DNA from: Acidimicrobiia bacterium
GTDB taxonomy: Bacteria > Actinomycetota > Acidimicrobiia > IMCC26256 > PALSA-555
NCBI GenBank assembly: GCA_035948415.1
Contig: DASZJD010000036.1
Coordinates: 1,034-65,033, forward strand
Length of the DNA: 64,000 nt
Reading direction: 5' to 3'
Under the pieces are notes generated by a model. The model ran no database searches, was not told the origin of the DNA, and worked only from the letters and a program-made list of their open reading frames with translations. Every line of letters starts with the position of its first letter. The first letter of the stretch is position 1. Below, in pieces: positions 5,349 to 15,454 of this stretch. A program made the position numbers and the translations under genes.

Positions 5349-5630
5349 TCACGGCCCGCCGTGGAACTCCCGGAACGCGACGAGCAGCCGCTCGCGTGCC
5401 TCAGCGCCGAGGGCCTCGACGTCCGTGACCGTCACGCGGCCGGTCAGCGCCATGGTGCGGCGGATCTGCGCGAGGTAGCGCTCGCAACCGTCGCACGCGG
5501 ACAAGTGACGCTCGAAGCGGACGCGCGCGTCGGCGGGCATCGCGCCCTCGAGGTAGTCGGTGACCGCCTCGACGAACTCCTGACAGCGGTAGTCGTCCGC
5601 GCTGCGACGCAGCAACCTGGCCCGGATCAT
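5349..5630 (-). CDS. zinc-binding anti-sigma factor (ZAS family)
   Basis: It has the HLSACDGCERY (HxxxCxxC) motif and overlaps the upstream ECF sigma gene by 4 nt. Confidence 0.8.
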   Translation of the reverse strand: MIRARLLRRSADDYRCQEFVEAVTDYLEGAMPADARVRFERHLSACDGCERYLAQIRRTMALTGRVTVTDVEALGAEARERLLVAFREFHGGP

Positions 5631-6277
5631 CGTGGATCGTCCTCGAAGTAGGTCTCGAGGGCACGGCGCACGGTCGCACGCGCCCGGTGCAGGAGCACCC
5701 GCTGGTTCGTCTCGGAGAGCTCGAGGGCGTTACACGCCTCGGCCGCGGTCCAGCCCTCGAGATCTCGGAGGCTGAGGACGGCCTGCTGGTTCGGCGGCAG
5801 GGTCGCCACGGCCCGCTCGACGGCGTCGAGCGTCTCGGCCGCCAGGAGATGCTCCTCGGGTTCCTCGTCCCATGCCGATGGCGGCGCCGCCCACGCTCCC
5901 GCCCGCCGGCCCCGGCGGCGGAACCGCCCGGGATCGACGGCGGGCTGGTCGGCGTCGAGCTCGTCGCTCAGCGACGCGAACGGGACGCTGCGGCGCTCCC
6001 GAACGCCCGTGCTCCGCGCCCGGTTGGCGAGGATCCGATGCAGCCACGTCTTCACCGCCGACCGCTGCTCGAACCGACCGACCCCCGTGATGACCGCCAT
6101 CCAGGTGTCCTGGACGACCTCCTCGACGGCGGCCGGCGTCGCCACGTACGAGCGCGCCAACCGCCGCAGCGAGGCGTCGTAGCGGTCCAGCAGCCAGCCG
6201 AACGCGGCCTCGTCGCCGCGGCGCAGCGCGTCGACCAGGACCCCATCGTCGGCGAAGTCGGCGGCGACGTCGGCCAT
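5627..6277 (-). CDS. ECF RNA polymerase sigma factor
   Basis: Region 2 is VQDTWMAVITGVGRFEQ...WLHRILANRA. Region 4 is LSLRDLEGWTAAEACNALELSETNQRVLLHRAR. Confidence 0.9.
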   Translation of the reverse strand: MADVAADFADDGVLVDALRRGDEAAFGWLLDRYDASLRRLARSYVATPAAVEEVVQDTWMAVITGVGRFEQRSAVKTWLHRILANRARSTGVRERRSVPFASLSDELDADQPAVDPGRFRRRGRRAGAWAAPPSAWDEEPEEHLLAAETLDAVERAVATLPPNQQAVLSLRDLEGWTAAEACNALELSETNQRVLLHRARATVRRALETYFEDDPR

Positions 6278-6341: not shown

Positions 6342-7550
6342 TTGGCCCGCACGTGCAGGCGAGCGAGAGGAACCGATGGCACTCGGCGTGAGGTGTCCGG
6401 CACCGGCCGGGACGCGGCGCGGACCCGGGACCGGGCCGGGCCGGTGACGGCCGACGCGCCGCGTCCGCCGCGCTGGTCGCCCCGACGGAAGTACGGCGTC
6501 GCGGCGGTGGCGCTCGCAATGCTCGCGGCGGCGGGGGTCGCGGTGGCCAGCCAGTCGAACCCGAGCAGCGTCGCCGGTGGCGTCGACGTCAACCACCTGT
6601 CGGTCGGCCCGGCCCCGCCGAGCCTCGCCGACGCCAAGGGCTGGCTGAACACGGCGCCGCTCACCGCCGCCGACCTGCGGGGCAAGGTCGTCCTCTACGA
6701 CTTCTGGACCTACTCGTGCGTCAACTGCGTCCGCACCCTCCCGCACGTTCGGGCCTGGTTCGACCGCTACCGGCAGGACGGGCTCGTCGTCGTCGGGATC
6801 CACTCCCCCGAGTTCGACTTCGAGAAGGACCACGGCAACGTGACGTCCGCCGTGCAGCGCCTGCACGTCGACTACCCGGTGGCGCTCGACGACAACATGG
6901 ACATCTGGAACGCGTTCGGCACCCAGTACTGGCCCGAGGAGTGGGTCTCGGACCGCCAGGGCCACCTCCGGTACATGGACGTCGGCGAGGGCAACTACCA
7001 GAGCACCGAGGCCGTGCTGCGCAAGCTGCTGGGCGTGCCCGCCCGCGCCCCCCGCGCTGCCCCGCCCGGCGCGGGGAACCTGGGCCAGCCCCCCACGGCG
7101 GCACAGAGCGTCACCGCCGAGACCTACCTCGGCCTCGAGAAGGGGGCGACGGGCGCGCAGCCCGGGCCCGCCACGTACCCGAACGTCGGCACGCTGCCGG
7201 AGGGGACGGCGCGCCTCGTCGGCGCGTGGGACGCCACCGCGCAGCAGGTGCAGGCCGTGGCCCCCGGTGCCGCCGTCGTGCTCGGCTACCGCGCCCGGGC
7301 GGTGAACCTCGTGATGGCGGCCGCGTCGGCGCAGCCGGTGCGGGTGGACGTGCAGCTGGACGGCAAGCCCCTGCCGCCCGCGGAGCGGAGCCCGGCCGTG
7401 CAGGTCGACGCCCAGGGCCGGACCTTCCTGAGGGTCTCGACGCCCGATCTGTACCCGGTGGTGCTCGGCGGGCGCGTCGAGGGCCACACGCTGCGCCTCA
7501 CCGCGGCAGGTTCCGGCGTCCAGGCGTTCGCGTTCACCTTCGGCGCCTGA
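6342..7550 (+). CDS. membrane-anchored thioredoxin-like (redoxin/TlpA-DipZ C-terminal type) protein
   Basis: It has a single TM (YGVAAVALAMLAAAGVAVA), a CxxC site in FWTYSCVNCVRTLP, and an extra C-terminal beta-rich domain as in DipZ. The start is uncertain; an alternative GTG lies at 6444. Confidence 0.75.
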   Translation: MARTCRRARGTDGTRREVSGTGRDAARTRDRAGPVTADAPRPPRWSPRRKYGVAAVALAMLAAAGVAVASQSNPSSVAGGVDVNHLSVGPAPPSLADAKGWLNTAPLTAADLRGKVVLYDFWTYSCVNCVRTLPHVRAWFDRYRQDGLVVVGIHSPEFDFEKDHGNVTSAVQRLHVDYPVALDDNMDIWNAFGTQYWPEEWVSDRQGHLRYMDVGEGNYQSTEAVLRKLLGVPARAPRAAPPGAGNLGQPPTAAQSVTAETYLGLEKGATGAQPGPATYPNVGTLPEGTARLVGAWDATAQQVQAVAPGAAVVLGYRARAVNLVMAAASAQPVRVDVQLDGKPLPPAERSPAVQVDAQGRTFLRVSTPDLYPVVLGGRVEGHTLRLTAAGSGVQAFAFTFGA

Positions 7551-8255
7551 GTGGCCGCCCAGCTGGTCGCGCTGTTCGGCGCCGGGGTGGCGTCGTTCCT
7601 CGCCCCGTGCATCGTGCCGCTGCTGCCCGCGTACCTCGGGATCATCGCCGGCGAGACCGCCGACGCTCGCGACCCGGCCCGGGCCGTGCCCGCCACCGTC
7701 GTGTTCGTGCTCGGCTTCGCGGTCGTGTTTGCGGGGCTCGGCGCCGTCGCGGGCCTGCTCGGGTCGTCGCTGCACGACGTCCAGCAGGCGGTGCAGCGGG
7801 TCGGCGGCGTGGTCGTGGCCGTGATGGGCCTGGCGCTCCTCGGCGTCCTCCGGGGACCCTTCGCACGGGAGCGCCGGCTGGTGCCACGGGTGCCGACCGG
7901 CCGGGGCCCGGCGCGCCCGTTCGTGGTCGGGGTCGCCTTCGGTGCCGCGTGGAGCCCGTGCGTCGGGCCGCTCCTGGCGGCGGCGCTCACCTTGGCCGCC
8001 CGCAGCGGCCAGGTCGGACGGGGCACCCTCCTGCTGCTGGCGTACGCGCTCGGAATCGGTGTGCCGTTCCTCCTCGCGGCATTAGGCCTGGCCTCCTTCC
8101 CGAACCTCGCCGAGCGCCTCCGGCGAGCGGGGCCGGTCCTCGAGCGCGTCGCCGGCGTGCTGCTCGTGATCCTTGGCGTCCTCCTCGCCACCGGGGCCTA
8201 CGGACACCTGACCTCGTACCTGGCGCGCTTCACGCCTGCGGTCGGCGGCCTCTGA
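7551..8255 (+). CDS. ccdA: cytochrome c biogenesis protein CcdA / DsbD-type thiol-disulfide transporter
   Basis: The GTG start abuts the preceding stop. It is polytopic with two conserved Cys: FLAPCIVPLLPAYLG and AAWSPCVGPLL. Confidence 0.85.
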   Translation: MAAQLVALFGAGVASFLAPCIVPLLPAYLGIIAGETADARDPARAVPATVVFVLGFAVVFAGLGAVAGLLGSSLHDVQQAVQRVGGVVVAVMGLALLGVLRGPFARERRLVPRVPTGRGPARPFVVGVAFGAAWSPCVGPLLAAALTLAARSGQVGRGTLLLLAYALGIGVPFLLAALGLASFPNLAERLRRAGPVLERVAGVLLVILGVLLATGAYGHLTSYLARFTPAVGGL

Positions 8256-8498: not shown

Positions 8499-9671
8499 GT
8501 GAGGAAGCCCGGACTGGACGGGTCGGCCTGGCCGTCCGAGCGTCAGGAGCTGCTGCTCCGCGCTGCGTTGCTCGATCGGGACGCCGCCGGCGCGGCATGG
8601 GCCGAGCTCGCCCCGGACCTGCACCCCGACCGGCCCGACGAGGACCCTGAGGTCCTGCGTCTCCTCCCGCTCGTGCACCACAACCTTCGTCGGGCCGGAA
8701 TCACGGACCCGCACGCGGATGCCCTTGGCGCCGCGACGCGCCAGAACTGGTACCGGACGCGCACCGTCCTGGCGGGCGCGGCGCCGGCGCTGTCGTGCCT
8801 CCTCGCGGCCGGCGTCCCGACGATGGTCCTGAAGGGTGCACCGCTGGCGCTCCGGTATTACGCCCACCCGTCCCTCCGCTTCTTGAGCGACGTCGACGTC
8901 CTCGTCCCGACCGCGGCGGCCGAACCGAGCCTGGACCTGCTCACGGCCGCCGGATGGCGCCGCCAGAGCCCGATCCCTCGCCGGCGCCTGTTCCGGGCCC
9001 GGCACTCCGAGAACCTCGTCCACGACGAGCACGGCAACCTCGACCTGCACTGGCGCCTCTCGATGCCCCTCGTGCTGGCCGCTGACCGCGAGCGCTCCGA
9101 GGAGGACTTCTGGCAGGCGGCCGAGCCGCTCACGGTGGCCGGGGTCGAGACCCTCGCCCCCTGCCCCGCCGACCTCGTCCTCCACGTCTGCGTCCACGGC
9201 GCGTGGACGCTGTCTGAGGCCACGGCGCGGTGGGTCGCCGACGCGATGACGGTCATCCGGTCGACCGGAGACCGGATGGACTGGGACCGTCTCACGACCC
9301 AGATCGCGCGGCGTCGCGTCGTCATCGGGCTCCGCAACGACCTGACCTACCTCGCACGGGACTTCGGCGCACCAGTGCCCGGAGCGGTGCTCGAGCGCCT
9401 CCGGCGCGCGCCGGTGAGCCGACGCGAGGCGCGGACGTACCGGTCGTTGACCCGGTCGCTCCCACGCGGCGGGCTCCGCGAGACCGCGGGGCGGTTCCGC
9501 GGCTACTGGCTGGAGAAGACGGGGGCGCTGCCGCGCTGGCGCCAGGTCCGCGAGCTACCCGGCCATCTGGAGGACCACTGGGGTCTCGCCCACGCCTGGG
9601 AGATCCCGCTCGAGGCCGTCGCTCGGCTCGCCCGTCACCTCGGCCTGGCCCGCAAGGCCGGGGCCGACTGA
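8499..9671 (+). CDS. uncharacterised nucleotidyltransferase family protein (NTP_transf_5 / PF14907-like)
   Basis: The motif is MVLKGAPLALRYYAHPSLRFLSDVDVLVPTAAAEPSLDLLTAAGWRR. It has a GTG start and is convergent with the hydroxylase genes. Confidence 0.7.
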   Translation: MRKPGLDGSAWPSERQELLLRAALLDRDAAGAAWAELAPDLHPDRPDEDPEVLRLLPLVHHNLRRAGITDPHADALGAATRQNWYRTRTVLAGAAPALSCLLAAGVPTMVLKGAPLALRYYAHPSLRFLSDVDVLVPTAAAEPSLDLLTAAGWRRQSPIPRRRLFRARHSENLVHDEHGNLDLHWRLSMPLVLAADRERSEEDFWQAAEPLTVAGVETLAPCPADLVLHVCVHGAWTLSEATARWVADAMTVIRSTGDRMDWDRLTTQIARRRVVIGLRNDLTYLARDFGAPVPGAVLERLRRAPVSRREARTYRSLTRSLPRGGLRETAGRFRGYWLEKTGALPRWRQVRELPGHLEDHWGLAHAWEIPLEAVARLARHLGLARKAGAD

Positions 9672-9678
9672 GCCGGGG

Positions 9679-9694
9679 CGCGCCGCGCGGCGCG
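9679..9694. terminator. perfect 16-nt GC palindrome between convergent genes (candidate bidirectional terminator hairpin)
   Basis: CGCGCCGCGCGGCGCG is its own reverse complement. It lies in the 32-nt gap between stops at 9671 (+) and 9704 (-). There is no U-tract. Confidence 0.3.
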
Positions 9695-9703
9695 AGCAGC
9701 CGG

Positions 9704-10618
9704 TCAGCGAGTGGCTTGGTGTCGCGCCCGGCGTAGCGATCGGACGCGCGCGACGCCGGCCGAGAGCTTCCGCCGGGCGCCCGACGACAGCATCCGGAAC
9801 CGGATCCAGGCGTGGAGCGCCCGAACTTTCGCCCGGTCCCGGTGCAGCCCTTCGCCCGGCGGGCGGGGACGGAGTCCGAGGCGACGGAGCCGGCTGTTCC
9901 ACGCGTGGACCTCCTGGGTGCGGTTCGCGGCCGCGGTCGTGACGCTGCACGACAGCGCCACCGAGACGTCGGTGCCGCCGATGACCCAGTGGAAGGCGTA
10001 GGGCGGGATGTAGAGCGCGTCGCCGGGCCCGAGCACGAAGCGGGTGACGCGCTCGGGGAGCCGGTCGAGGTTGAGGACCGCCGGCCCGTAGCGACGCTCG
10101 ACCTGCCGCTGGCCCTCGGAGGCGTCGCTGAACTCGCCGATGAAGAGCTCCTTCGTGCCCTCGAGCTGGAGCAGGACGTTGTGGTTGTGGTCGACGTGGG
10201 CTGGAACGACGGCGCCGGGCGACGCGATGAGCGCCAGCGACTCGCTCGGTCCCAACGTTCCCTCCGAGGTCGGGATCGCGGCTCGGATCGGCTCGACCCA
10301 GCGCTCGACGAGCGCGTCGTACGGCGTGGCCGTGTCGATGTGCCAGAGGACCATCCAGCAGTGGTTCTCCTCGATCCCCTCGATCACCGCTCGGGCCGAC
10401 AAGGGCAGCCGTTCGGCCTCACCGGTGGGCAGCACGAGGGGGAGGTCGGCGCGGTGGTGCTCGACGAGGTTGCCAGGATGGACCTCGGCGACCGCGGCCA
10501 GGGCCTCTCTCGACAACGACGGATGACCGCTCAGCCCGTGCCGCAGCTGGAGGGGGCGGCGCCCGATGGCGCCCCGCAGGGCTGCCGGGTCGAGTCCGAC
10601 CAACGCGTCCGTGGTCAT
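9704..10618 (-). CDS. JmjC/cupin 2-oxoglutarate oxygenase, FIH-like (paralog 2)
   Basis: ATG 10618 forms an ATGA overlap with the upstream stop. Motifs are VPAHVDHNHNVLLQLEGTKELFIGEF (HxD ... K) and the distal His in PPYAFHWV. Confidence 0.7.
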   Translation of the reverse strand: MTTDALVGLDPAALRGAIGRRPLQLRHGLSGHPSLSREALAAVAEVHPGNLVEHHRADLPLVLPTGEAERLPLSARAVIEGIEENHCWMVLWHIDTATPYDALVERWVEPIRAAIPTSEGTLGPSESLALIASPGAVVPAHVDHNHNVLLQLEGTKELFIGEFSDASEGQRQVERRYGPAVLNLDRLPERVTRFVLGPGDALYIPPYAFHWVIGGTDVSVALSCSVTTAAANRTQEVHAWNSRLRRLGLRPRPPGEGLHRDRAKVRALHAWIRFRMLSSGARRKLSAGVARVRSLRRARHQATR

Positions 10619-11490
10619 CGCCCAGCGCTCGCGGAGCGGCGTCGACGCAGCCAGCGGACGGCGAGGACGATCCTCGCCTTCGTCCAGTCCGCCAGCCGGG
10701 ACTCGGCCGGGCCCCGAGGACGGAGGCGCAGCTCGCGCAGATGACGGTTGGCGAGGTGGACCAGCTCGGCCCGCTCGCTGTCGACGGTGGAGAAGCTGGC
10801 GGACAGGGCGGTGGACGGCTCCGGCCCGCACCGCACCCAGTGGATGGTGTACGGCGGCAGGAAGAGCCCCTCACCCGGGCCCAGCTGGATGACCCGGACC
10901 TCGTCCGGCATCGCGGCGAGGTTGAGGTGGCGGCCGAAGTTGCGCTCGATCTCGGCGAGCTCACGGTCGGGGTCGGTGAAGGCCCCGATCATCACCTCCT
11001 TCGTGCCGACGAGCTGCAGCAGGAGGTTGTCGTGACGGTCGCAGTGGGCCGGCACCGTGGATCCGGGCGAGCCGCAGAACAGGGACGCGTCGCGTCGAAC
11101 CATGCCCCCGCCGTAGGAGCCGAGCACCCGCTCGGCCTGGTCCAGGGTCTCGCGAACGAGCGGTCCCACCTTGGGCGTGTGATGGACGTGATAGAGGCGG
11201 ACCGACAAGCAGCGTCGAGCGAGGTCCTCGAGGGCCGCGCCGCCGTCGGGGTACGGGAGCGCCCGAGGGGGTGGGCTGAGGACAGGGAGCTCTCCGTCGT
11301 TGACCGTGATCCAGGCTGACGGCAGGCGCCGTCCGATCTCCCCGAGGGCGGAGGGTTCGAAGTCCGCGAACGCTGGTGCCTGGTGCGCGAAGCGCAGCGG
11401 CTGCGCCGCAGCAGCAGCCCGGCGCAGCTCCGCGGGCTCGACGTCGAGCCACTGCCGGCGATCGACCGGGCCGAGGTGGTCCACGTTCAT
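10615..11490 (-). CDS. JmjC/cupin 2-oxoglutarate oxygenase, FIH-like (paralog 1)
   Basis: Motifs are VPAHCDRHDNLLLQLVGTKEVMIGAF and PPYTIHWV. ATG 11490 (MNVDHLG) follows a GAGG; the track start is GTG 11505. Confidence 0.7.
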   Translation of the reverse strand: MNVDHLGPVDRRQWLDVEPAELRRAAAAAQPLRFAHQAPAFADFEPSALGEIGRRLPSAWITVNDGELPVLSPPPRALPYPDGGAALEDLARRCLSVRLYHVHHTPKVGPLVRETLDQAERVLGSYGGGMVRRDASLFCGSPGSTVPAHCDRHDNLLLQLVGTKEVMIGAFTDPDRELAEIERNFGRHLNLAAMPDEVRVIQLGPGEGLFLPPYTIHWVRCGPEPSTALSASFSTVDSERAELVHLANRHLRELRLRPRGPAESRLADWTKARIVLAVRWLRRRRSASAGR

Positions 11491-11492
11491 CG

Positions 11493-11517
11493 CGGCGCGC
11501 CTCACCGCGGCGCGCCG
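11493..11517 (-). promoter_or_regulatory. GC hairpin over the RBS/start region of hydroxylase paralog 1
   Basis: GGCGCGCC (11494-11501) and GGCGCGCC (11509-11516) are self-complementary 8-mers separated by 7 nt, and the flanking C/G pair extends the stem to 9 bp. On the mRNA this sits immediately 5' of ATG 11490 and includes the GAGG. Confidence 0.4.
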
Positions 11518-11631
11518 GGTCTACTCCGGGTGCCAGGGCGCGGCCGGCCGCTCGACCACCGGTCCGGCGCGTGGCCCCGACCGCTCGGCCACCTCAGGTG
11601 GGGGAACGGCACCCGTCGTCGGATCGATCGG

Positions 11632-11754
11632 CTAGCGGTCGCTGGGCCGCCAGATCGGCGTGCAGCGAACTTGGCTGGCGCTGATCGTGTTGAGTGGCTC
11701 GGTGACCGGCGTCCGGTCTGCGACCGCCGGCGGCTCGTAGCTCTCATCTCGCAT
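11632..11754 (-). CDS. repeat peptide H (single unit, 40 aa)
   Basis: The product is MRDESYEPPAVADRTPVTEPLNTISASQVRCTPIWRPSDR. It is absent from the track because it is under 60 aa. GGGAG lies 11 nt upstream, and it overlaps ORF G by 11 nt. Confidence 0.5.
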   Translation of the reverse strand: MRDESYEPPAVADRTPVTEPLNTISASQVRCTPIWRPSDR

Positions 11755-11920
11755 CGTGGTCTCGCTCCCTCGTCGTCGCCTGAGGTCCTTCACGCCCGTT
11801 CTTCCTGCGCCACGCGAGGGTCAGCGGCGGCACCACGACACTGTGATTGATCGTGTTCAGCGGCTCGGTCACCGACGTCCGCCCCACGACCGCCGGTCGC
11901 TCATAGCTCTCGTCGTGCAT
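11744..11920 (-). CDS. repeat peptide G (single unit + divergent tail, 58 aa)
   Basis: The product is MHDESYERPAVVGRTSVTEPLNTINHSVVVPPLTLAWRRKNGREGPQATTRERDHDAR. The SD is GGGAGGAGGGAG, upstream of ATG 11920. It is absent from the track. Confidence 0.5.
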   Translation of the reverse strand: MHDESYERPAVVGRTSVTEPLNTINHSVVVPPLTLAWRRKNGREGPQATTRERDHDAR

Positions 11921-11972
11921 GGCTCTCCCTCCTCCCTCGCCGTCGTCCGTCCGGGGACGGTTCTCGGACCGC

Positions 11973-12224
11973 CTACGAGTCGTGGCGCGTCGGCCTCCAC
12001 GCCGGGGTGAGCGGCTGGCTGCTGGTGGCCGCGTTCAGCGGCTCGCTGACCGAGGTGCGCTCCACGACCTCCGGCGACTCGTACGCCAACGCGGTGGGCT
12101 CGTCCCCGTCGTGCGGGCGCCAAACCGGGGTCCGCACGCCGCCGCTCGTGCTCACGACGTTGAGTGGTTCGGACACCGGCGTCCGGTCGTCGACCCGCGG
12201 CCGCTCGTAGCGTTCTCCTCGCAT
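11973..12224 (-). CDS. repeat peptide F (two units, 83 aa)
   Basis: Track ORF. The units are YERPRVDDRTPVSEPLNVVSTSGGVRTPVWR and YESPEVVERTSVSEPLNAATSSQPLTPAWR. The SD is GGGAGGAG. Confidence 0.65.
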   Translation of the reverse strand: MRGERYERPRVDDRTPVSEPLNVVSTSGGVRTPVWRPHDGDEPTALAYESPEVVERTSVSEPLNAATSSQPLTPAWRPTRHDS

Positions 12225-12264
12225 CCAACTCCTCCCGCTGCTGGCACCGATGCCGGGCGAGCAC

Positions 12265-12519
12265 CTAGTGCTCGCGCTTCGACCTCCAGGCCGGAGTCTT
12301 GAACACCTGGCTGCTGCTCGCCGCGTTCAGCGGCTCGCTGACCGGGGTCTGCCCCGCGACGCGGGGCGGCTCGTAGGCCGCGGGCTCGTCGCCCCGGGCG
12401 GACCCGTGCCAGGCCGGGGTGGCAAACGGAACGCCGCCGCTGGTGTTCACCGCGTTGAGGGGCTCGGACACCGACGTTCGGTCGTCGACCCGGGGCCGCT
12501 CGTAGCTCGCTTCTCCCAT
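12265..12519 (-). CDS. repeat peptide E (two units, 84 aa)
   Basis: The internal ATG 12519 (MGEASYERP...) is preceded by AAGGAGGA; the track ORF extends to 12543. It has two repeat units. Confidence 0.65.
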   Translation of the reverse strand: MGEASYERPRVDDRTSVSEPLNAVNTSGGVPFATPAWHGSARGDEPAAYEPPRVAGQTPVSEPLNAASSSQVFKTPAWRSKREH

Positions 12520-12564
12520 CGGATTCCTCCTTCGTACTCGCAATGGTGGCCGCAGCCGCGTCGG

Positions 12565-12825
12565 CTACAGCTGGTCTGGCTTCGTCCTCCACGTCGGTGT
12601 CGGTACCGAGTTGCTGTTCGTCAACGTGTTCAGTGGTTCGCTGACCGGCGTGTGCTCCTCGACCCCCGGTCGCTCGTAAGCCTCGACCGCGGGCTCGTCC
12701 CCCGCGGCACGGGACCGCCAGGCCGGGGTGAACGCCACACCCTGGCTGGTGTTGATCACGTTGAGCGGCTCGGTGACCGTCGTCCGGTCCTCGACCCGGG
12801 GTCGCTGGTAGCGGTCATCCTGCAT
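12565..12825 (-). CDS. repeat peptide D (two units, 86 aa)
   Basis: Track ORF. The product is MQDDRYQRPRVEDRTTVTEPLNVINTSQGVAFTPAWR...YERPGVEEHTPVSEPLNTLTNSNSVPTPTWR. The SD is GGGAGGA. Confidence 0.65.
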   Translation of the reverse strand: MQDDRYQRPRVEDRTTVTEPLNVINTSQGVAFTPAWRSRAAGDEPAVEAYERPGVEEHTPVSEPLNTLTNSNSVPTPTWRTKPDQL

Positions 12826-13120
12826 TGCCGTCCTCCCTCGTCGATGGCGGCCGCCTGCGGTCGGGGTCCGCCGTTCTCCATAACGGGGTGCCGGCGAGCG
12901 GGTTGCTGTTCGTCACCGCGTTCAGTGGCTCTCGGACCGGTGTCTGCCCTGCGACCCCCGGTGGCTCGTAGGCCTCGGCCACGGGCTCGTCCCCCGCGGC
13001 GTGCGACCGCCACGCGGGCGTGATGTTGATGACGCTGTGGCTGGTGTTGATCGTGTTGAGCGGCTCGGTGACCGTCGTCCGGTCCTCGACCCGCGGTCGC
13101 TCGTAGCGGTCATCGTCCAT
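12815..13120 (-). CDS. repeat peptide C (two units + extended tail, 101 aa)
   Basis: Track ORF. It has two units, and its tail runs 11 nt into ORF D. The SD is GGGAGGA. Confidence 0.65.
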   Translation of the reverse strand: MDDDRYERPRVEDRTTVTEPLNTINTSHSVINITPAWRSHAAGDEPVAEAYEPPGVAGQTPVREPLNAVTNSNPLAGTPLWRTADPDRRRPPSTREDGNAG

Positions 13121-13147
13121 CGCAGTCCTCCCGTCTGGGCCCGCCCG

Positions 13148-13423
13148 CTAGCGGTCGGGCTCGTCGTCCGGTTGCGTCGTCCGCCACGCCGGGGTGTTTG
13201 TGAGCGGATTGCTGTTGGACACCGCGTTCAGCGGATCGCTGACCGGTGTCTGCCCCGCGACCCCGGGTGGCTCGTAGGCCTCGGCCACAGGCCCGTCCCC
13301 CGCGGCGCGCGACCGCCAGGCCGGCGTTTCGGGAAGGCCATGGCTGGTGTTGATCGTGTTGAGCGGCTCGGTGACCGTCGTCCGGTCCTCGACCCGCGGT
13401 CGCTCGTAGCGGTGATCGTCCAT
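13148..13423 (-). CDS. repeat peptide B (two units, 91 aa)
   Basis: Track ORF. The product is MDDHRYERPRVEDRTTVTEPLNTINTSHGLPETPAWR...YEPPGVAGQTPVSDPLNAVSNSNPLTNTPAWRTTQPDDEPDR. The SD is GGGAGGA. Confidence 0.7.
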   Translation of the reverse strand: MDDHRYERPRVEDRTTVTEPLNTINTSHGLPETPAWRSRAAGDGPVAEAYEPPGVAGQTPVSDPLNAVSNSNPLTNTPAWRTTQPDDEPDR

Positions 13424-13450
13424 CGCAGTCCTCCCGTCTGGGCCCGCCCG

Positions 13451-13708
13451 CTAGCGGTCGGGCTCGTCGTCCGGTTGCGTCGTCCGCCACGCCGGGGTGA
13501 CCGTGAGCGGATTGCTGTTGGACACCGCGTTCAGCGGATCGCTGACCGGCGTGTGCGCCGCGACCGCCGGCGCGTCGTAGTCGTCGTCCCCCGCGCCCGA
13601 CCGCCAGGCCGGCGTGGTGGGAAGGCCATGGCTGGTGTTGATCGTGTTGAGCGGCTCGGTGACCGTCGTCCGGTCCTCGACCCGCGGTCGCTCGTAGTGG
13701 TCGTGCAT
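13451..13708 (-). CDS. repeat peptide A (two units, 85 aa)
   Basis: The internal ATG 13708 (MHDHYERP...) is preceded by GGAGGAGGAG; the track ORF extends to 13837. It has two units and the same C-terminus as B. Confidence 0.7.
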   Translation of the reverse strand: MHDHYERPRVEDRTTVTEPLNTINTSHGLPTTPAWRSGAGDDDYDAPAVAAHTPVSDPLNAVSNSNPLTVTPAWRTTQPDDEPDR

Positions 13709-14037
13709 CGCAGCTCCTCCTCCCTGGGACGCCCACTGGTGGTCGTCCGATGCCCTCTGTCTCGGGGTGAGGAACGCGGCTCGCGTCCGGTCTCGGCGTT
13801 CTCCGGGCCGGGAACAGGGGCGTGCTCGTCCTCGCACGCCACCCGTCGCCCCCGACGGTGCCCCACCCTTCCCCGTGCCCCGCCCTTCCGGGTTCGTCGA
13901 TCGAGCTCGACGTCCGCCCGCCGCTATCGCCGGCGTTGCCGCCCTTGCCCGACGCTTGCCCTCCGCCGCATCGATCGGGACTTCACTACGCTGCGTGACA
14001 CTAGAGGCCGCGGATCCCTCAGGGCAAGGACCAATCG

Positions 14038-14988
14038 GTGCCAGATCTCGATCGCGTCGTCACGCTGGGTGACATCTCGTTACGCCTCGTGGCCGCGGAC
14101 GCGGCCGGGGCCGCCGCGCTCGAGCTCAGCGTGGGCCCCGCGGGCGTGTCCGCCCCGGGGGCTGCGGCCCCCGTCGGGACGGTGCGCGCCGGGGGGGCCG
14201 CGCCGACGCTACCCGAGCGACCGCCGGATCAGGTCTACGACGACCGCCGGGTCTGGCTCGAGCACGACGACCTCCTGTTCTTGGACCTGACCGGCGTCGT
14301 CGCCCGGTCCGGGCCCACGACGGCGACGATCGGCGGCGGTCCGGGCCGCGAGCTCGCCGCCCTCGGGATCCGGCGGCTGTTCCTCTGCGCGGTGGGCCAC
14401 CTGCTCGGCTTCCAGGACCGGCTCCTCGTCCACGGGGGCGCGGTCGTCGTGGACGGCCGGACCGTCCTTGTCCTCGGAGAGAGTGGGAGGGGCAAGTCGA
14501 CGGTCGCCCTGGCCGCCCTCGAGCAGGGGTGGCCGGTCCTGTCGGACGACCTGGTGATCCTGCGGCGCGCCGAGGACGGCATCGACGTCGCCGGCGTGCC
14601 CCGGCCACCGACGGTCCCGACGGACCTGCAGGCCGAGGTGGAGGGCGCGGCGCGACCGGTCGCCGACGACCCGCGGGGTCGGGCCCAGCTCGCCCCCGAC
14701 GTGCTCACGGGCGGCTTCCACCGCGTCGGCGCGGTCGTCGTCGTGGGCCACGGGAGCGAGCCGCTCGGCGAGCTAGCGCCGGTCGCCGGGCGTCACGTCC
14801 ACCTGGTGCTCGTGGGCTCGTTCCCCGCCGCGAGCCACCCCGACCAGCTCCGGCGGGCGCATCCGGTGTTCGCGGAGCTGACGCGGCTGCCCTCCTGGGC
14901 GCTGCGGCACGGCACCGACGCCGCTCGCCGTCTGGCGTCGACGGCCGCGGCGATTCGCGGGCTCAGCCTGGCGGCGACCCGTCGCTGA
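14038..14988 (+). CDS. HPr kinase/phosphorylase C-terminal-like P-loop kinase (HprK-related)
   Basis: It has a Walker A motif in VLVLGESGRGKSTVALAALEQGWPVLSDDLVIL. The GTG start is divergent from the peptide array, and the 3' end overlaps the PqqD-like gene by 26 nt. Confidence 0.65.
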   Translation: MPDLDRVVTLGDISLRLVAADAAGAAALELSVGPAGVSAPGAAAPVGTVRAGGAAPTLPERPPDQVYDDRRVWLEHDDLLFLDLTGVVARSGPTTATIGGGPGRELAALGIRRLFLCAVGHLLGFQDRLLVHGGAVVVDGRTVLVLGESGRGKSTVALAALEQGWPVLSDDLVILRRAEDGIDVAGVPRPPTVPTDLQAEVEGAARPVADDPRGRAQLAPDVLTGGFHRVGAVVVVGHGSEPLGELAPVAGRHVHLVLVGSFPAASHPDQLRRAHPVFAELTRLPSWALRHGTDAARRLASTAAAIRGLSLAATRR

Positions 14989-15238
14989 GCAGCCCGAGGC
15001 TGGACAGCTCGTCGAGGAACGACCGCACGTCCGCCTCGACCTGCGCCGCCGGCATTGACGGATAGCGGTCGAGGACCACGCGGCACAGGTCCGGGAGGTC
15101 TCGGCGACCGTCGAGCGCGTCCCACACCAGCGTGCCGACCGCGTTCAGGGTGATGAGCTCGGTTCCGGCAGGATCGACCAGGACCGCTCGGTCTTCGACG
15201 AGGTCCGACACCACGTCGGGGTTTCGGCCCGGCGCCAC
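14963..15238 (-). CDS. PqqD family protein (RiPP recognition element-like)
   Basis: The motif is VLVDPAGTELITLNAVGTLVWDALDGRRDLPDLCRVVLDRYPSMPAAQVEADVRSFLDELSSLGLL. The start is uncertain: GTG at 15238, 15214 or 15211, or ATG 15316. Confidence 0.65.
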   Translation of the reverse strand: MAPGRNPDVVSDLVEDRAVLVDPAGTELITLNAVGTLVWDALDGRRDLPDLCRVVLDRYPSMPAAQVEADVRSFLDELSSLGLLSDGSPPG

Positions 15239-15381
15239 GGGCGCGCATCGTATCGAACGCGCGACGGGAGCCGTTCCCCGAACCGGTCCGTCGTGTCGCC
15301 CGGACCGGTGTCGCACGCTTCCCCCGACCGCGGCGCGGCCGCGCGGTCGTGGCGGCGGCGCCGCTCGGCGAGGGGGTGGGG

Positions 15382-15454
15382 AGCCGGGTGTCGGGATCGA
15401 ACCGACGGCCTCTGCTTTACAAGAGCAGCGCTCTGCCAGCTGAGCTAACCCGGC
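15382..15454 (-). tRNA. tRNA-Thr (anticodon TGT)
   Basis: Folded by hand. The acceptor stem is GCCGGGT/ACCCGGC, the D arm GCTC-AGCTGGCA-GAGC, the anticodon stem CTGCT/AGCAG with loop CTTGTAA, and the T arm GTCGG-TTCGATC-CCGAC. The discriminator is T and CCA is not encoded. Confidence 0.9.

Follow-up and report, generated by a model that had tools for sequence, protein, structure and literature searches.

A 64,000-nt stretch of DNA from an Acidimicrobiia bacterium (contig DASZJD010000036.1; GC ~74%; hereafter the window) was analyzed for a group of small repeat-peptide genes and the two tandem JmjC oxygenase genes beside them, JmjC-A and JmjC-B. The cassette they belong to spans 8499-15316 and comprises an NTP_transf_5 gene, JmjC-B, JmjC-A, eight precursor genes (14 repeat units), an HprK-like kinase gene and a gene for a PqqD-type protein. 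Actinobacterial housekeeping genes surround the locus (carD, ispD/F, cysS, disA, clpC), and the other window genes scanned were likewise housekeeping. Both oxygenase genes lie on the same (minus) strand as the precursor array and directly downstream of it, and together with the array they probably form one operon. In literature searches no description was found of a cassette combining JmjC, PqqD, HprK and PF14907 (NTP_transf_5) proteins, or of its precursor family; it is an undescribed, compact and conserved gene cassette of the RiPP type (peptides made by the ribosome and modified after translation). The oxygenase genes are located as follows.

9704-10618, minus strand: JmjC-B, a 304-aa JmjC-type Fe(II)/2-oxoglutarate (2OG) oxygenase with H141-x-D143...H210, K156 and N147 at the 2OG positions, and two long C-terminal helices (G+C at third codon positions, GC3, 0.91)
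10615-11490, minus strand: JmjC-A, a 291-aa paralog of JmjC-B with H149-x-D151...H217 and K164 (ATG start, GGTGAGG 9 nt upstream)
10615-10618, minus strand: ATGA, the JmjC-A stop codon overlapping the JmjC-B start codon, as read from the sequence

A preliminary description of this DNA had proposed two tandem JmjC paralogs, translationally coupled at the ATGA. The reading frames were as described, with 33% identity between the two proteins across 279 aa (BLASTP, E 3e-35), and the coupling site at 10615-10618 was confirmed by the sequence; the same 4-nt overlap occurs in the gene calls of three related loci (L001, L002, L016). JmjC-A carries PAHCDRHDNLLLQLVGTKE followed by PPYTIHWV, and JmjC-B carries PAHVDHNHNVLLQLEGTKE followed by PPYAFHWV. 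Both proteins have the HxD...H and Lys motifs that had been reported for them, but the second motif had been placed ~75 residues after the first, and the two metal-binding His are 68-69 residues apart (H149/H217 in A; H141/H210 in B). An alignment of 87 sequences from both subfamilies contained six invariant columns only, four of which are the HxD...H triad and the Lys; N147, Q151 and G154 (B numbering) were ≥90% conserved, N155 being the A equivalent of N147. Both proteins scored above Pfam gathering scores for JmjC_2 (PF08007; 1.1e-9 for B, 1.1e-7 for A) and Cupin_8 (PF13621; 1.9e-6 for B, 7.9e-7 for A). The motifs are therefore not chance resemblances, since both proteins pass the gathering scores and H, D, K and H are invariant in 87 sequences. 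NCBIfam held no model for JmjC-A, JmjC-B, the NTP_transf_5 protein or the precursors. The earlier assignment to JmjC-type Fe(II)/2OG oxygenases with intact active-site residues is upheld by Pfam, by the invariant H/D/K/H and by the predicted fold described below. Judged from these sequence features and from the genomic context, we place at about 0.7 the probability that JmjC-A and JmjC-B are catalytically competent Fe(II)/2OG oxygenases of the JmjC hydroxylase group that tailor the adjacent repeat peptides.

The peptides in question are encoded by eight small genes between 11632 and 13708.

13451-13708, minus strand: precursor 1, two units
13148-13423, minus strand: precursor 2, two units (MDDHRYERPRVEDRTTVTEPLNTINTSHGLPETPAWRSRAAGDGPVAEAYEPPGVAGQTPVSDPLNAVSNSNPLTNTPAWRTTQPDDEPDR), matched by neither Pfam nor NCBIfam
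12815-13120, minus strand: precursor 3, two units
12565-12825, minus strand: precursor 4, two units
12265-12519, minus strand: precursor 5, two units (Shine-Dalgarno GAAGGAGGA)
11973-12224, minus strand: precursor 6, two units (GC3 0.93; Shine-Dalgarno GGGAGGAG)
11744-11920, minus strand: precursor 7, one unit (...YERPAVVGRTSVTEPLNTINHSVVVPPLTLAWRR...)
11632-11754, minus strand: precursor 8, one unit (MRDESYEPPAVADRTPVTEPLNTISASQVRCTPIWRPSDR; ATG start, Shine-Dalgarno GAGGGAG, GC3 0.85)

All eight begin with ATG behind a strong GGAGG-type Shine-Dalgarno sequence and have a GC3 of 0.80-0.93. Six of the eight hold two units and two hold one, giving 14 units in total, marked at the DNA level by a 54-nt block that recurs 14 times over 11686-13696. 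Units follow the pattern YxxPxV...[ED]PLN...Ser...[TS]PxWR, and T10, V12, P15-L16-N17, S22 and the Trp are common to all 14; the Thr of [TS]PxW is present in 13. In a six-frame translation of the whole window, [ED]PLN occurred 14 times, every time in frame inside one of the eight precursor frames. A profile search of a collection of 5.8 billion proteins returned 34 related small proteins, none of them named. We regard the precursors as real genes because of their ATG starts, strong Shine-Dalgarno sequences and GC3, the 14 in-frame units and the 34 related proteins.

Precursors 3 and 4 (12815-12825) and precursors 7 and 8 (11744-11754) overlap by 11 nt, the downstream start lying inside the 3' end of the upstream gene. 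The 25-nt regions upstream of precursors 2 and 3 are identical, a sign that the array was recently duplicated in tandem. When the precursor-unit profile was compared with the PDB, the single family matched was the F1 ATP synthase alpha subunit (the segment before the P-loop), at E values of only 0.075-0.9. The AtpA segment (M. smegmatis; Acidimicrobiia AtpA, L003 15966-17570) is identical to precursor YDAPGIEARVAVSEPLNTVTQ at 10 of 22 positions, and two of the precursor types listed below (ii, AELAQG; iv, DPLIG) echo its EPLQTG. The precursors might be derived from this segment or mimic it; the resemblance may also be chance.

A metagenome scan for related loci yielded 8 loci only, several of them too short for context. 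Four precursor types were distinguished from an alignment of 34 units, the profile search and tblastn for accessory genes.

Type i (window, L001, L002, L007, L015, L016/L010, P0119 contig): YExPx[VI]ExRTxVx[EDA]PLN...S...[TS]PxWR
Type ii (L012, a partial contig with precursor and tandem JmjC; L013): NYERPxVExRRDI[TS]A[EQ]LxQG..TSG..NPxWR[HR]
Type iii (L017/L019; one B-like JmjC and a GMC oxidoreductase): HY[IV]APAIExRTPVSALMT..SP[LR]W[HK]
Type iv (L004/L005; an HprK-like gene and one B-like JmjC): YEAPAIDTRESLSDPLIG...

Type i cassettes have tandem JmjC-A and JmjC-B and NTP_transf_5, with the kinase and the RiPP recognition element (RRE, the discrete PqqD-type protein) wherever the contig is long enough. 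Three of them (L001, L002, L015) have the same gene set in the same relative orientations within unrelated flanks, with single-unit precursors; L016/L010, L012/L013 and the P0119 contig are more divergent. Type ii locus L013 has tandem JmjC, kinase, RRE, NTP_transf_5 and an ABC (ATP-binding cassette) transporter. The type iii JmjC is 45% identical to JmjC-B and 39% to JmjC-A. Across all cassette types, the constant element is a small YxxP peptide gene adjoining a JmjC gene, in at least nine loci with different flanks. The repeat peptides are the likely substrate of JmjC-A and JmjC-B because this adjacency is kept in every related cassette, which upholds that part of the earlier interpretation. 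The accompanying proposal of one enzyme per repeat subtype is unlikely: the A and B pair also occurs with single-unit precursors (L001, L002, L015).

The type iv loci represent a minimal variant (L004 8894-10909, L005 8243-10258), found on 24 contigs, which consists of a 49-aa peptide, an unannotated HprK-like protein 35% identical to that of the window and a B-like JmjC; no PqqD or NTP_transf_5 gene was found nearby in L004/L005. L004 had been considered as a stand-alone homolog (~40% identity) and was rejected as such, an HprK-like gene and a small YxxP peptide gene sitting beside it. On two short metagenomic contigs (L008 1-400, L002 2624-2781) the precursor genes end early and ...PxWR continues in another frame or past a stop codon, which could reflect frameshift, sequencing error or decay. 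A variant unit reading ...GKTLN...SGKWR also occurs in L008.

AlphaFold2 models of JmjC-A and JmjC-B as monomers (predicted local distance difference test, pLDDT, 95.5 and 95.0) had a double-stranded beta-helix followed by two long C-terminal helices (229-246 and 258-303 in the JmjC-B model). Foldseek searches of the PDB matched YcfD (Rhodothermus, E. coli), NO66, MINA53, B. subtilis YxbC, FIH, JMJD5 and TYW5 with a probability of 1.0 and E values of 1e-10 to 1e-12, at TM-scores of ~0.5 and identities of 14-21%. JmjC-B reached 2.5e-12 to YcfD-like, NO66, YxbC and FIH structures; JmjC-A reached 2.9e-12 to NO66 and 8e-11 to FIH. FIH (factor inhibiting HIF, the hypoxia-inducible factor) is a human asparaginyl/aspartyl/histidinyl beta-hydroxylase. 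It first appeared at rank 25-29 of the lists, with an E value similar to those of the top matches (YcfD-like, NO66, YxbC). A family profile run against PDB sequences gave TYW5 (5e-9), FIH (1.4e-8), JMJD5 (1.7e-7), YxbC (1e-6) and YcfD-like proteins (2e-6). As a single-sequence query against the PDB, JmjC-A alone found no significant match; only the family profile and the fold search were informative. In the profile alignment FIH H199, D201, N205, K214 and H279 fall on the motif residues of JmjC-A and JmjC-B; K214 and N205 are the 2OG-binding positions in FIH structures. Between the Lys and the distal His, the region relevant to residues that bind the Asn side chain (for example FIH Gln239), the alignment is not reliable.

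Structure prediction and comparison with FIH and YcfD gave a 2OG-oxygenase fold with its active site, but FIH was not ahead of YcfD, NO66 or YxbC. The label 'FIH-like' in the preliminary description was too specific: Foldseek puts YcfD, NO66 and YxbC at least as high, the profile puts TYW5 first, and in Pfam JmjC_2 scores above Cupin_8. JmjC-A and JmjC-B form a clade of their own within the JmjC hydroxylase group and are not specifically FIH-like.

An exhaustive search with a hidden Markov model returned 691 cluster representatives in the wider JmjC clade (E ≤ 1e-30), and the B-type proteins are close to this clade. The A type is rare: 15 word-index homologs were found, 49-93% identical with one exception at 39%, and it was seen only in type i cassettes. 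Two distant members of the clade bear Acidimicrobiia/Acidimicrobiales names as metagenome-assembled genomes. Several proteins (P0147, P0158, P0161, P0171, P0257, P0263) have JmjC fused to FemAB-like Acetyltransf_6 (PF13480) domains, and in L003 (6515-9623) a JmjC gene (homolog of ~40% identity) follows two Acetyltransf_6 genes within an envelope-polysaccharide locus. This association suggests a second role in the clade, non-RiPP or peptide-ligating. The wider clade is not exclusively peptide-tailoring, because Acetyltransf_6-fused or adjacent members occur in envelope-polysaccharide contexts. A Nocardia contig (L006), obtained from a genome-contig scan with the A-type alignment, was rejected: the match was weak (29 residues) and belonged to a different JmjC protein in an unrelated context.

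The ranking of the ribosomal oxygenases bears on whether the substrate is a peptide at all. JmjC-A and JmjC-B could act as hydroxylases of some cellular protein, such as a ribosomal one in the manner of YcfD, their position beside the peptide array being incidental. JmjC_2, a ribosomal-oxygenase family, is their best Pfam family, YcfD and NO66 head the Foldseek lists, and some clade members stand in non-RiPP contexts. The conserved adjacency of precursor and JmjC genes speaks against coincidence, as do their shared strand and overlapping stop and start codons. So does the confinement of the rare A-type homologs to these cassettes. The C-terminal winged-helix domain is also absent: the proteins have 291 and 304 aa and end in two helices, with target-normalised TM-scores of 0.33-0.44 against targets of 370-460 aa. 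A cellular target is on balance very improbable.

If the repeat peptides are the substrate, the question becomes which residue is modified. Across the 34 aligned units, conservation extends to the Y, the P and the [VI] of YxxPx[VI], to a [VIL] further downstream and to the PLN Leu, all of them hydrophobic anchors such as recognition sequences typically have. Lasso- and PqqD-type RREs have YxxP as their mapped recognition motif (PMC12710340, PMC13381572). The preliminary description had singled out the invariant Asn of every repeat as a plausible target. That Asn is present in all 14 window units and in 29 of the 34 aligned units, but the latter are of type i only; types ii (...AELAQG...), iii (with ALMT) and iv (with DPLIG) lack it, type ii retaining two tandem JmjC genes all the same. 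FIH-style beta-hydroxylation of the [ED]PLN Asn by one or both enzymes would draw on this invariance within type i, on the place of FIH among the best sequence and fold matches with its active-site residues aligned to those of JmjC-A and JmjC-B, and on an acidic residue three positions ahead of the Asn, loosely like the [DE]-[IV]-N of FIH substrates. The spacing within [ED]-P-L-N is however unlike that of [DE]-[IV]-N, FIH is no closer a relative than the Arg, His and tRNA hydroxylases, and type ii keeps tandem JmjC, kinase, RRE and NTP_transf_5 around ...TAELAQG... with no Asn. The conservation of PLN also has a competing explanation. In linear polyphosphorylated peptides (LPPs) leader cleavage takes place after T-1 of the FET motif (PMC13381572), and PLN stands at that position, so by analogy PLN may serve in recognition or processing and not be where the peptide is modified. 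Asn hydroxylation is possible but on balance unlikely.

The C terminus of the unit offers another candidate. A Trp with a basic residue after it is, outside the leader, the only feature common to types i-iii, and at least one enzyme, probably of the B type, might target [TS]-P-x-W-[RHK] by hydroxylation of the Trp ring, of Arg or His at C-3, or of Pro. In type iii a single B-like JmjC accompanies a precursor in which SPLWH is kept and PLN lost, a hint, from this one lineage, that B may go with the WR block and A with PLN. The fold matches include YcfD and JMJD5, both JmjC Arg hydroxylases, and CzlI provides a precedent for aromatic hydroxylation (PMC11575548). The link between B type and motif comes from that lineage alone, type iv (L004/L005) has a B-like JmjC yet a precursor with no Trp, and [TS]PxW[RHK] could equally be a recognition site for a protease or exporter. 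Modification at [TS]PxWR is possible but tentative; it is at least as likely as Asn hydroxylation, and the data do not decide between them. Fold similarity is no predictor of the target, because the RiPP enzymes CzlI (Phe) and BipG (Orn) are both JmjC proteins and differ in target. Nor does any residue outside the recognition motif mark the site by being conserved in all four types.

Oxygenase chemistry other than hydroxylation was also weighed: a cross-link (for example of Trp to another residue), a desaturation, or an oxidative backbone cleavage that releases the units from multi-unit precursors and would thus stand in for the lacking peptidase. No protease was found in the cassette or its relatives, although six of the eight precursors have two units. 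HEXXH enzymes were recently reported to cleave the backbone of RiPPs by 2OG-dependent oxidation (PMC12636437). The partner enzymes vary (mostly kinase and nucleotidyltransferase, a GMC oxidoreductase in type iii), consistent with further processing of an oxidised intermediate. The characterised close structural relatives are all hydroxylases, however, literature searches returned no JmjC precedent for backbone cleavage or cross-linking in RiPPs, and the chemistry would be purely inferential; we consider it improbable.

The cassette partners are encoded on both sides of the oxygenase genes and the array.

14038-14988, plus strand: HprK-like P-loop kinase (GESGRGKST), divergent from the precursor array; its relatives are weakly ScmC-like
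14963-15316, minus strand: discrete PqqD-family RRE, its 3' end overlapping the kinase gene convergently (Pfam PqqD 4.3e-17; NCBIfam lasso_PqqD_Strm 4.7e-7)
8499-9671, plus strand: NTP_transf_5 (PF14907) nucleotidyltransferase-fold enzyme, convergent with JmjC-B (Pfam 2.9e-38)

The kinase scored 2.1e-7 with Pfam Hpr_kinase_C (just under the gathering score) and 5.5e-9 and 3.7e-8 with NCBIfam HprK_rel_B and HprK_rel_A (below cut-off), and in a PDB search its P-loop aligned to L. casei HprK/P (8.6e-4). Orthologs 33-62% identical were found by tblastn in L001, L002, L015, L016, L013 and L004. The best PDB match of the RRE was the lasso B1 protein TbiB1 (0.0026), with LppB (9x8z) at 0.22. NTP_transf_5 is also present in L001, L002, L013, L015, L016, L018 and the P0119 contig. 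One clade member, the predicted protein P0188 (637 aa), has JmjC (12-267) fused to NTP_transf_5 (304-550), although a gene-calling artefact is possible; because it joins the two, JmjC and NTP_transf_5 appear to be functionally linked.

On the far side of the RRE gene the cassette abuts a tRNA gene, tRNA-Thr(TGT) at 15380-15454 (minus strand), the only element found in a promoter and terminator scan and in Rfam. An attenuator hairpin was sought between the last precursor and JmjC-A, where the folding energy did not differ from that of shuffles (z = -0.58). The opposite flank holds ccdA and thioredoxin-like genes, a flank that the close relative L018 has too. Near the cassette at 5349-6277 and 6342-8255 are an ECF (extracytoplasmic function)-type sigma factor, a zf-HC2-like anti-sigma factor, a thioredoxin-like (Redoxin and Thioredoxin_10) protein and a CcdA/DsbD membrane protein. 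The CcdA/DsbD and thioredoxin-like pair is syntenic in L018 and missing from the remaining cassettes, so a connection with the pathway is improbable.

Several observations weigh against the view that JmjC-A and JmjC-B tailor the repeat peptides as part of such a pathway. Outside the recognition motif, no single residue is conserved across the four precursor types. A leader peptidase is absent from the cassette (8499-15316) and an exporter from the window; ABC exporters occur in some relatives (L002, L013, L016). The kinase assignment draws on sub-threshold family scores and a P-loop alignment. Clade members also occur outside RiPP-like contexts, such as P0042 in a polysaccharide locus and several of the Acetyltransf_6 fusions.

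With these reservations, a pathway can be outlined. The discrete PqqD protein would bind Y-x-x-P-x-[VI] at the start of each unit, as in lasso and LPP pathways, a step proposed from motif identity. JmjC-A and JmjC-B would then oxidise, most likely hydroxylate, side chains of the unit; two positions per unit is the simplest reading, and an A/B heterodimer acting at one position is the alternative. The HprK-like kinase would phosphorylate a conserved Ser or Thr, by analogy with LPP and paeninodin, the candidates being the Ser five residues after PLN (the equivalent of LPP core Ser3) and the Thr of [TS]PxWR. NTP_transf_5 would elaborate or extend the phosphate, as in pseudomycoidin (PMC8498205). 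More speculatively, a hydroxyl made by the JmjC enzymes may itself be the handle for elaboration, because the partner enzymes in all variants act on alcohols (kinase and nucleotidyltransferase, or GMC oxidoreductase). In its strongest form this would be a new RiPP class of Acidimicrobiia-like actinobacteria, defined by the tandem JmjC pair and built on multi-unit precursors with a lasso-type leader, in which installed hydroxyls and not native Ser are polyphosphorylated by the kinase and extended by NTP_transf_5, with GMC oxidation in type iii; we think this version quite unlikely. If true, this hydroxylate-then-elaborate logic would be without a counterpart in LPPs and lasso peptides, and it could be the source of the 'missing partner modification' put forward for the NTP transferase by the LPP authors.

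The main settings in which JmjC hydroxylases are known are chromatin, hypoxia sensing and the modification of ribosomes. Few have a demonstrated part in the tailoring of ribosomal natural products, each as an accessory enzyme, and the present cassette centres on a conserved tandem pair. The two enzymes add new members to a known superfamily, and the cassette represents a new version of the RRE/kinase/nucleotidyltransferase peptide pathways. If the proposed function is true, the reach of LPP- and lasso-derived RRE-dependent pathways would widen to uncultured actinobacteria, two new leader-dependent oxygenases of peptides would become accessible together with no fewer than 14 natural substrates from a single genome, and there would be a handle on the function of PF14907 transferases.

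The closest described system is the LPP family (LppA/B/K/N/S/D), whose published distribution is Bacillota only (Popov et al., Nat Commun 2026, PMC13381572). Its precursors carry the motif YxxPxVLxHQxIxFETxxS, and core Ser3 is polyphosphorylated (PMC13381572). A discrete lasso-type RRE, an HprK-like kinase (in the cassette, slightly under the gathering score) and an NTP transferase of the PF14907 type are common to both systems, and a macrolactam synthetase is missing from both. Compared by eye with the published consensus, the cassette pattern YExPxVExRTxVxEPLNTxxxS shares YxxPxV, the spacing and the later Ser, whereas the second half differs. A leader peptidase of the SpI/SipW-like type is a defining feature of LPP loci; the cassette has none, and the signal-peptidase Pfam family is also absent from the gene tables of L001, L002, L015, L016 and the P0119 contig. 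The cassette has two JmjC oxygenases, of which the LPP paper mentions none (PMC13381572), and its host is a high-GC actinobacterium. Unlike LPP precursors, those of the cassette are multi-copy, often two-unit and end in a conserved C-terminal [TS]PxWR, and its RRE is nearer to TbiB1 than to LppB by the scores given above. The cassette is in sum small, portable and LPP-like, yet it lies outside the stated phylum of LPPs and lacks their peptidase.

Phosphorylated or glycosylated lasso peptides (paeninodin, pseudomycoidin) share a B1-type RRE, a YxxP leader, an HprK-homolog kinase and a nucleotidyltransferase with the cassette (PMC8498205). Lasso kinases act on a C-terminal Ser, and the cassette peptides generally do not end in Ser. 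A lasso-peptide biosynthetic gene cluster was considered and rejected: no Asn-synthetase-like macrolactam synthetase (C) or transglutaminase-like B2 protease was found in the cassette, among the window genes scanned or in L001, L002 and L015 (up to 10 kb on either side). In canucin, the Fe/2OG hydroxylase CanE acts on the linear lasso precursor (PMC8498205).

Among the JmjC enzymes, FIH shares the JmjC double-stranded beta-helix, HxD...H, the Lys and Asn that bind 2OG and the C-terminal helices, and its PAHYDEQQNFFAQIKGYK aligns with the JmjC-B motif quoted above. It differs in being 14-20% identical at a TM-score of ~0.5, no closer than TYW5, JMJD5, YxbC or YcfD/NO66, and in its substrate motif. 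YcfD/RoxA, NO66, MINA53 and YxbC are alike in being the top Foldseek matches, with JmjC_2 as the top Pfam family; the ribosomal oxygenases differ in their winged-helix domain, and the cassette context is one of peptides, not of ribosome-related genes.

The nearest functional precedents are JmjC enzymes of other RiPP pathways: CzlI of curacozole, which hydroxylates Phe to Tyr (PMC11575548), and BipG, BpmG and PbsQ of the biphenomycins, which hydroxylate Orn (PMC12707348, PMC12257519). Like JmjC-A and JmjC-B, CzlI and BipG are Fe/2OG enzymes of the JmjC subfamily whose genes adjoin a precursor gene. The substrate of CzlI and BipG is the linear precursor, and their activity depends on flanking sequence. 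Compared by description, each is a single accessory enzyme in a cluster of other chemistry (azole/cyanobactin-like, or multinuclear non-heme iron-dependent oxidase and radical S-adenosylmethionine enzymes), whereas in the cassette the tandem JmjC pair stands out most among the modifying activities and occurs together with kinase and nucleotidyltransferase modules.

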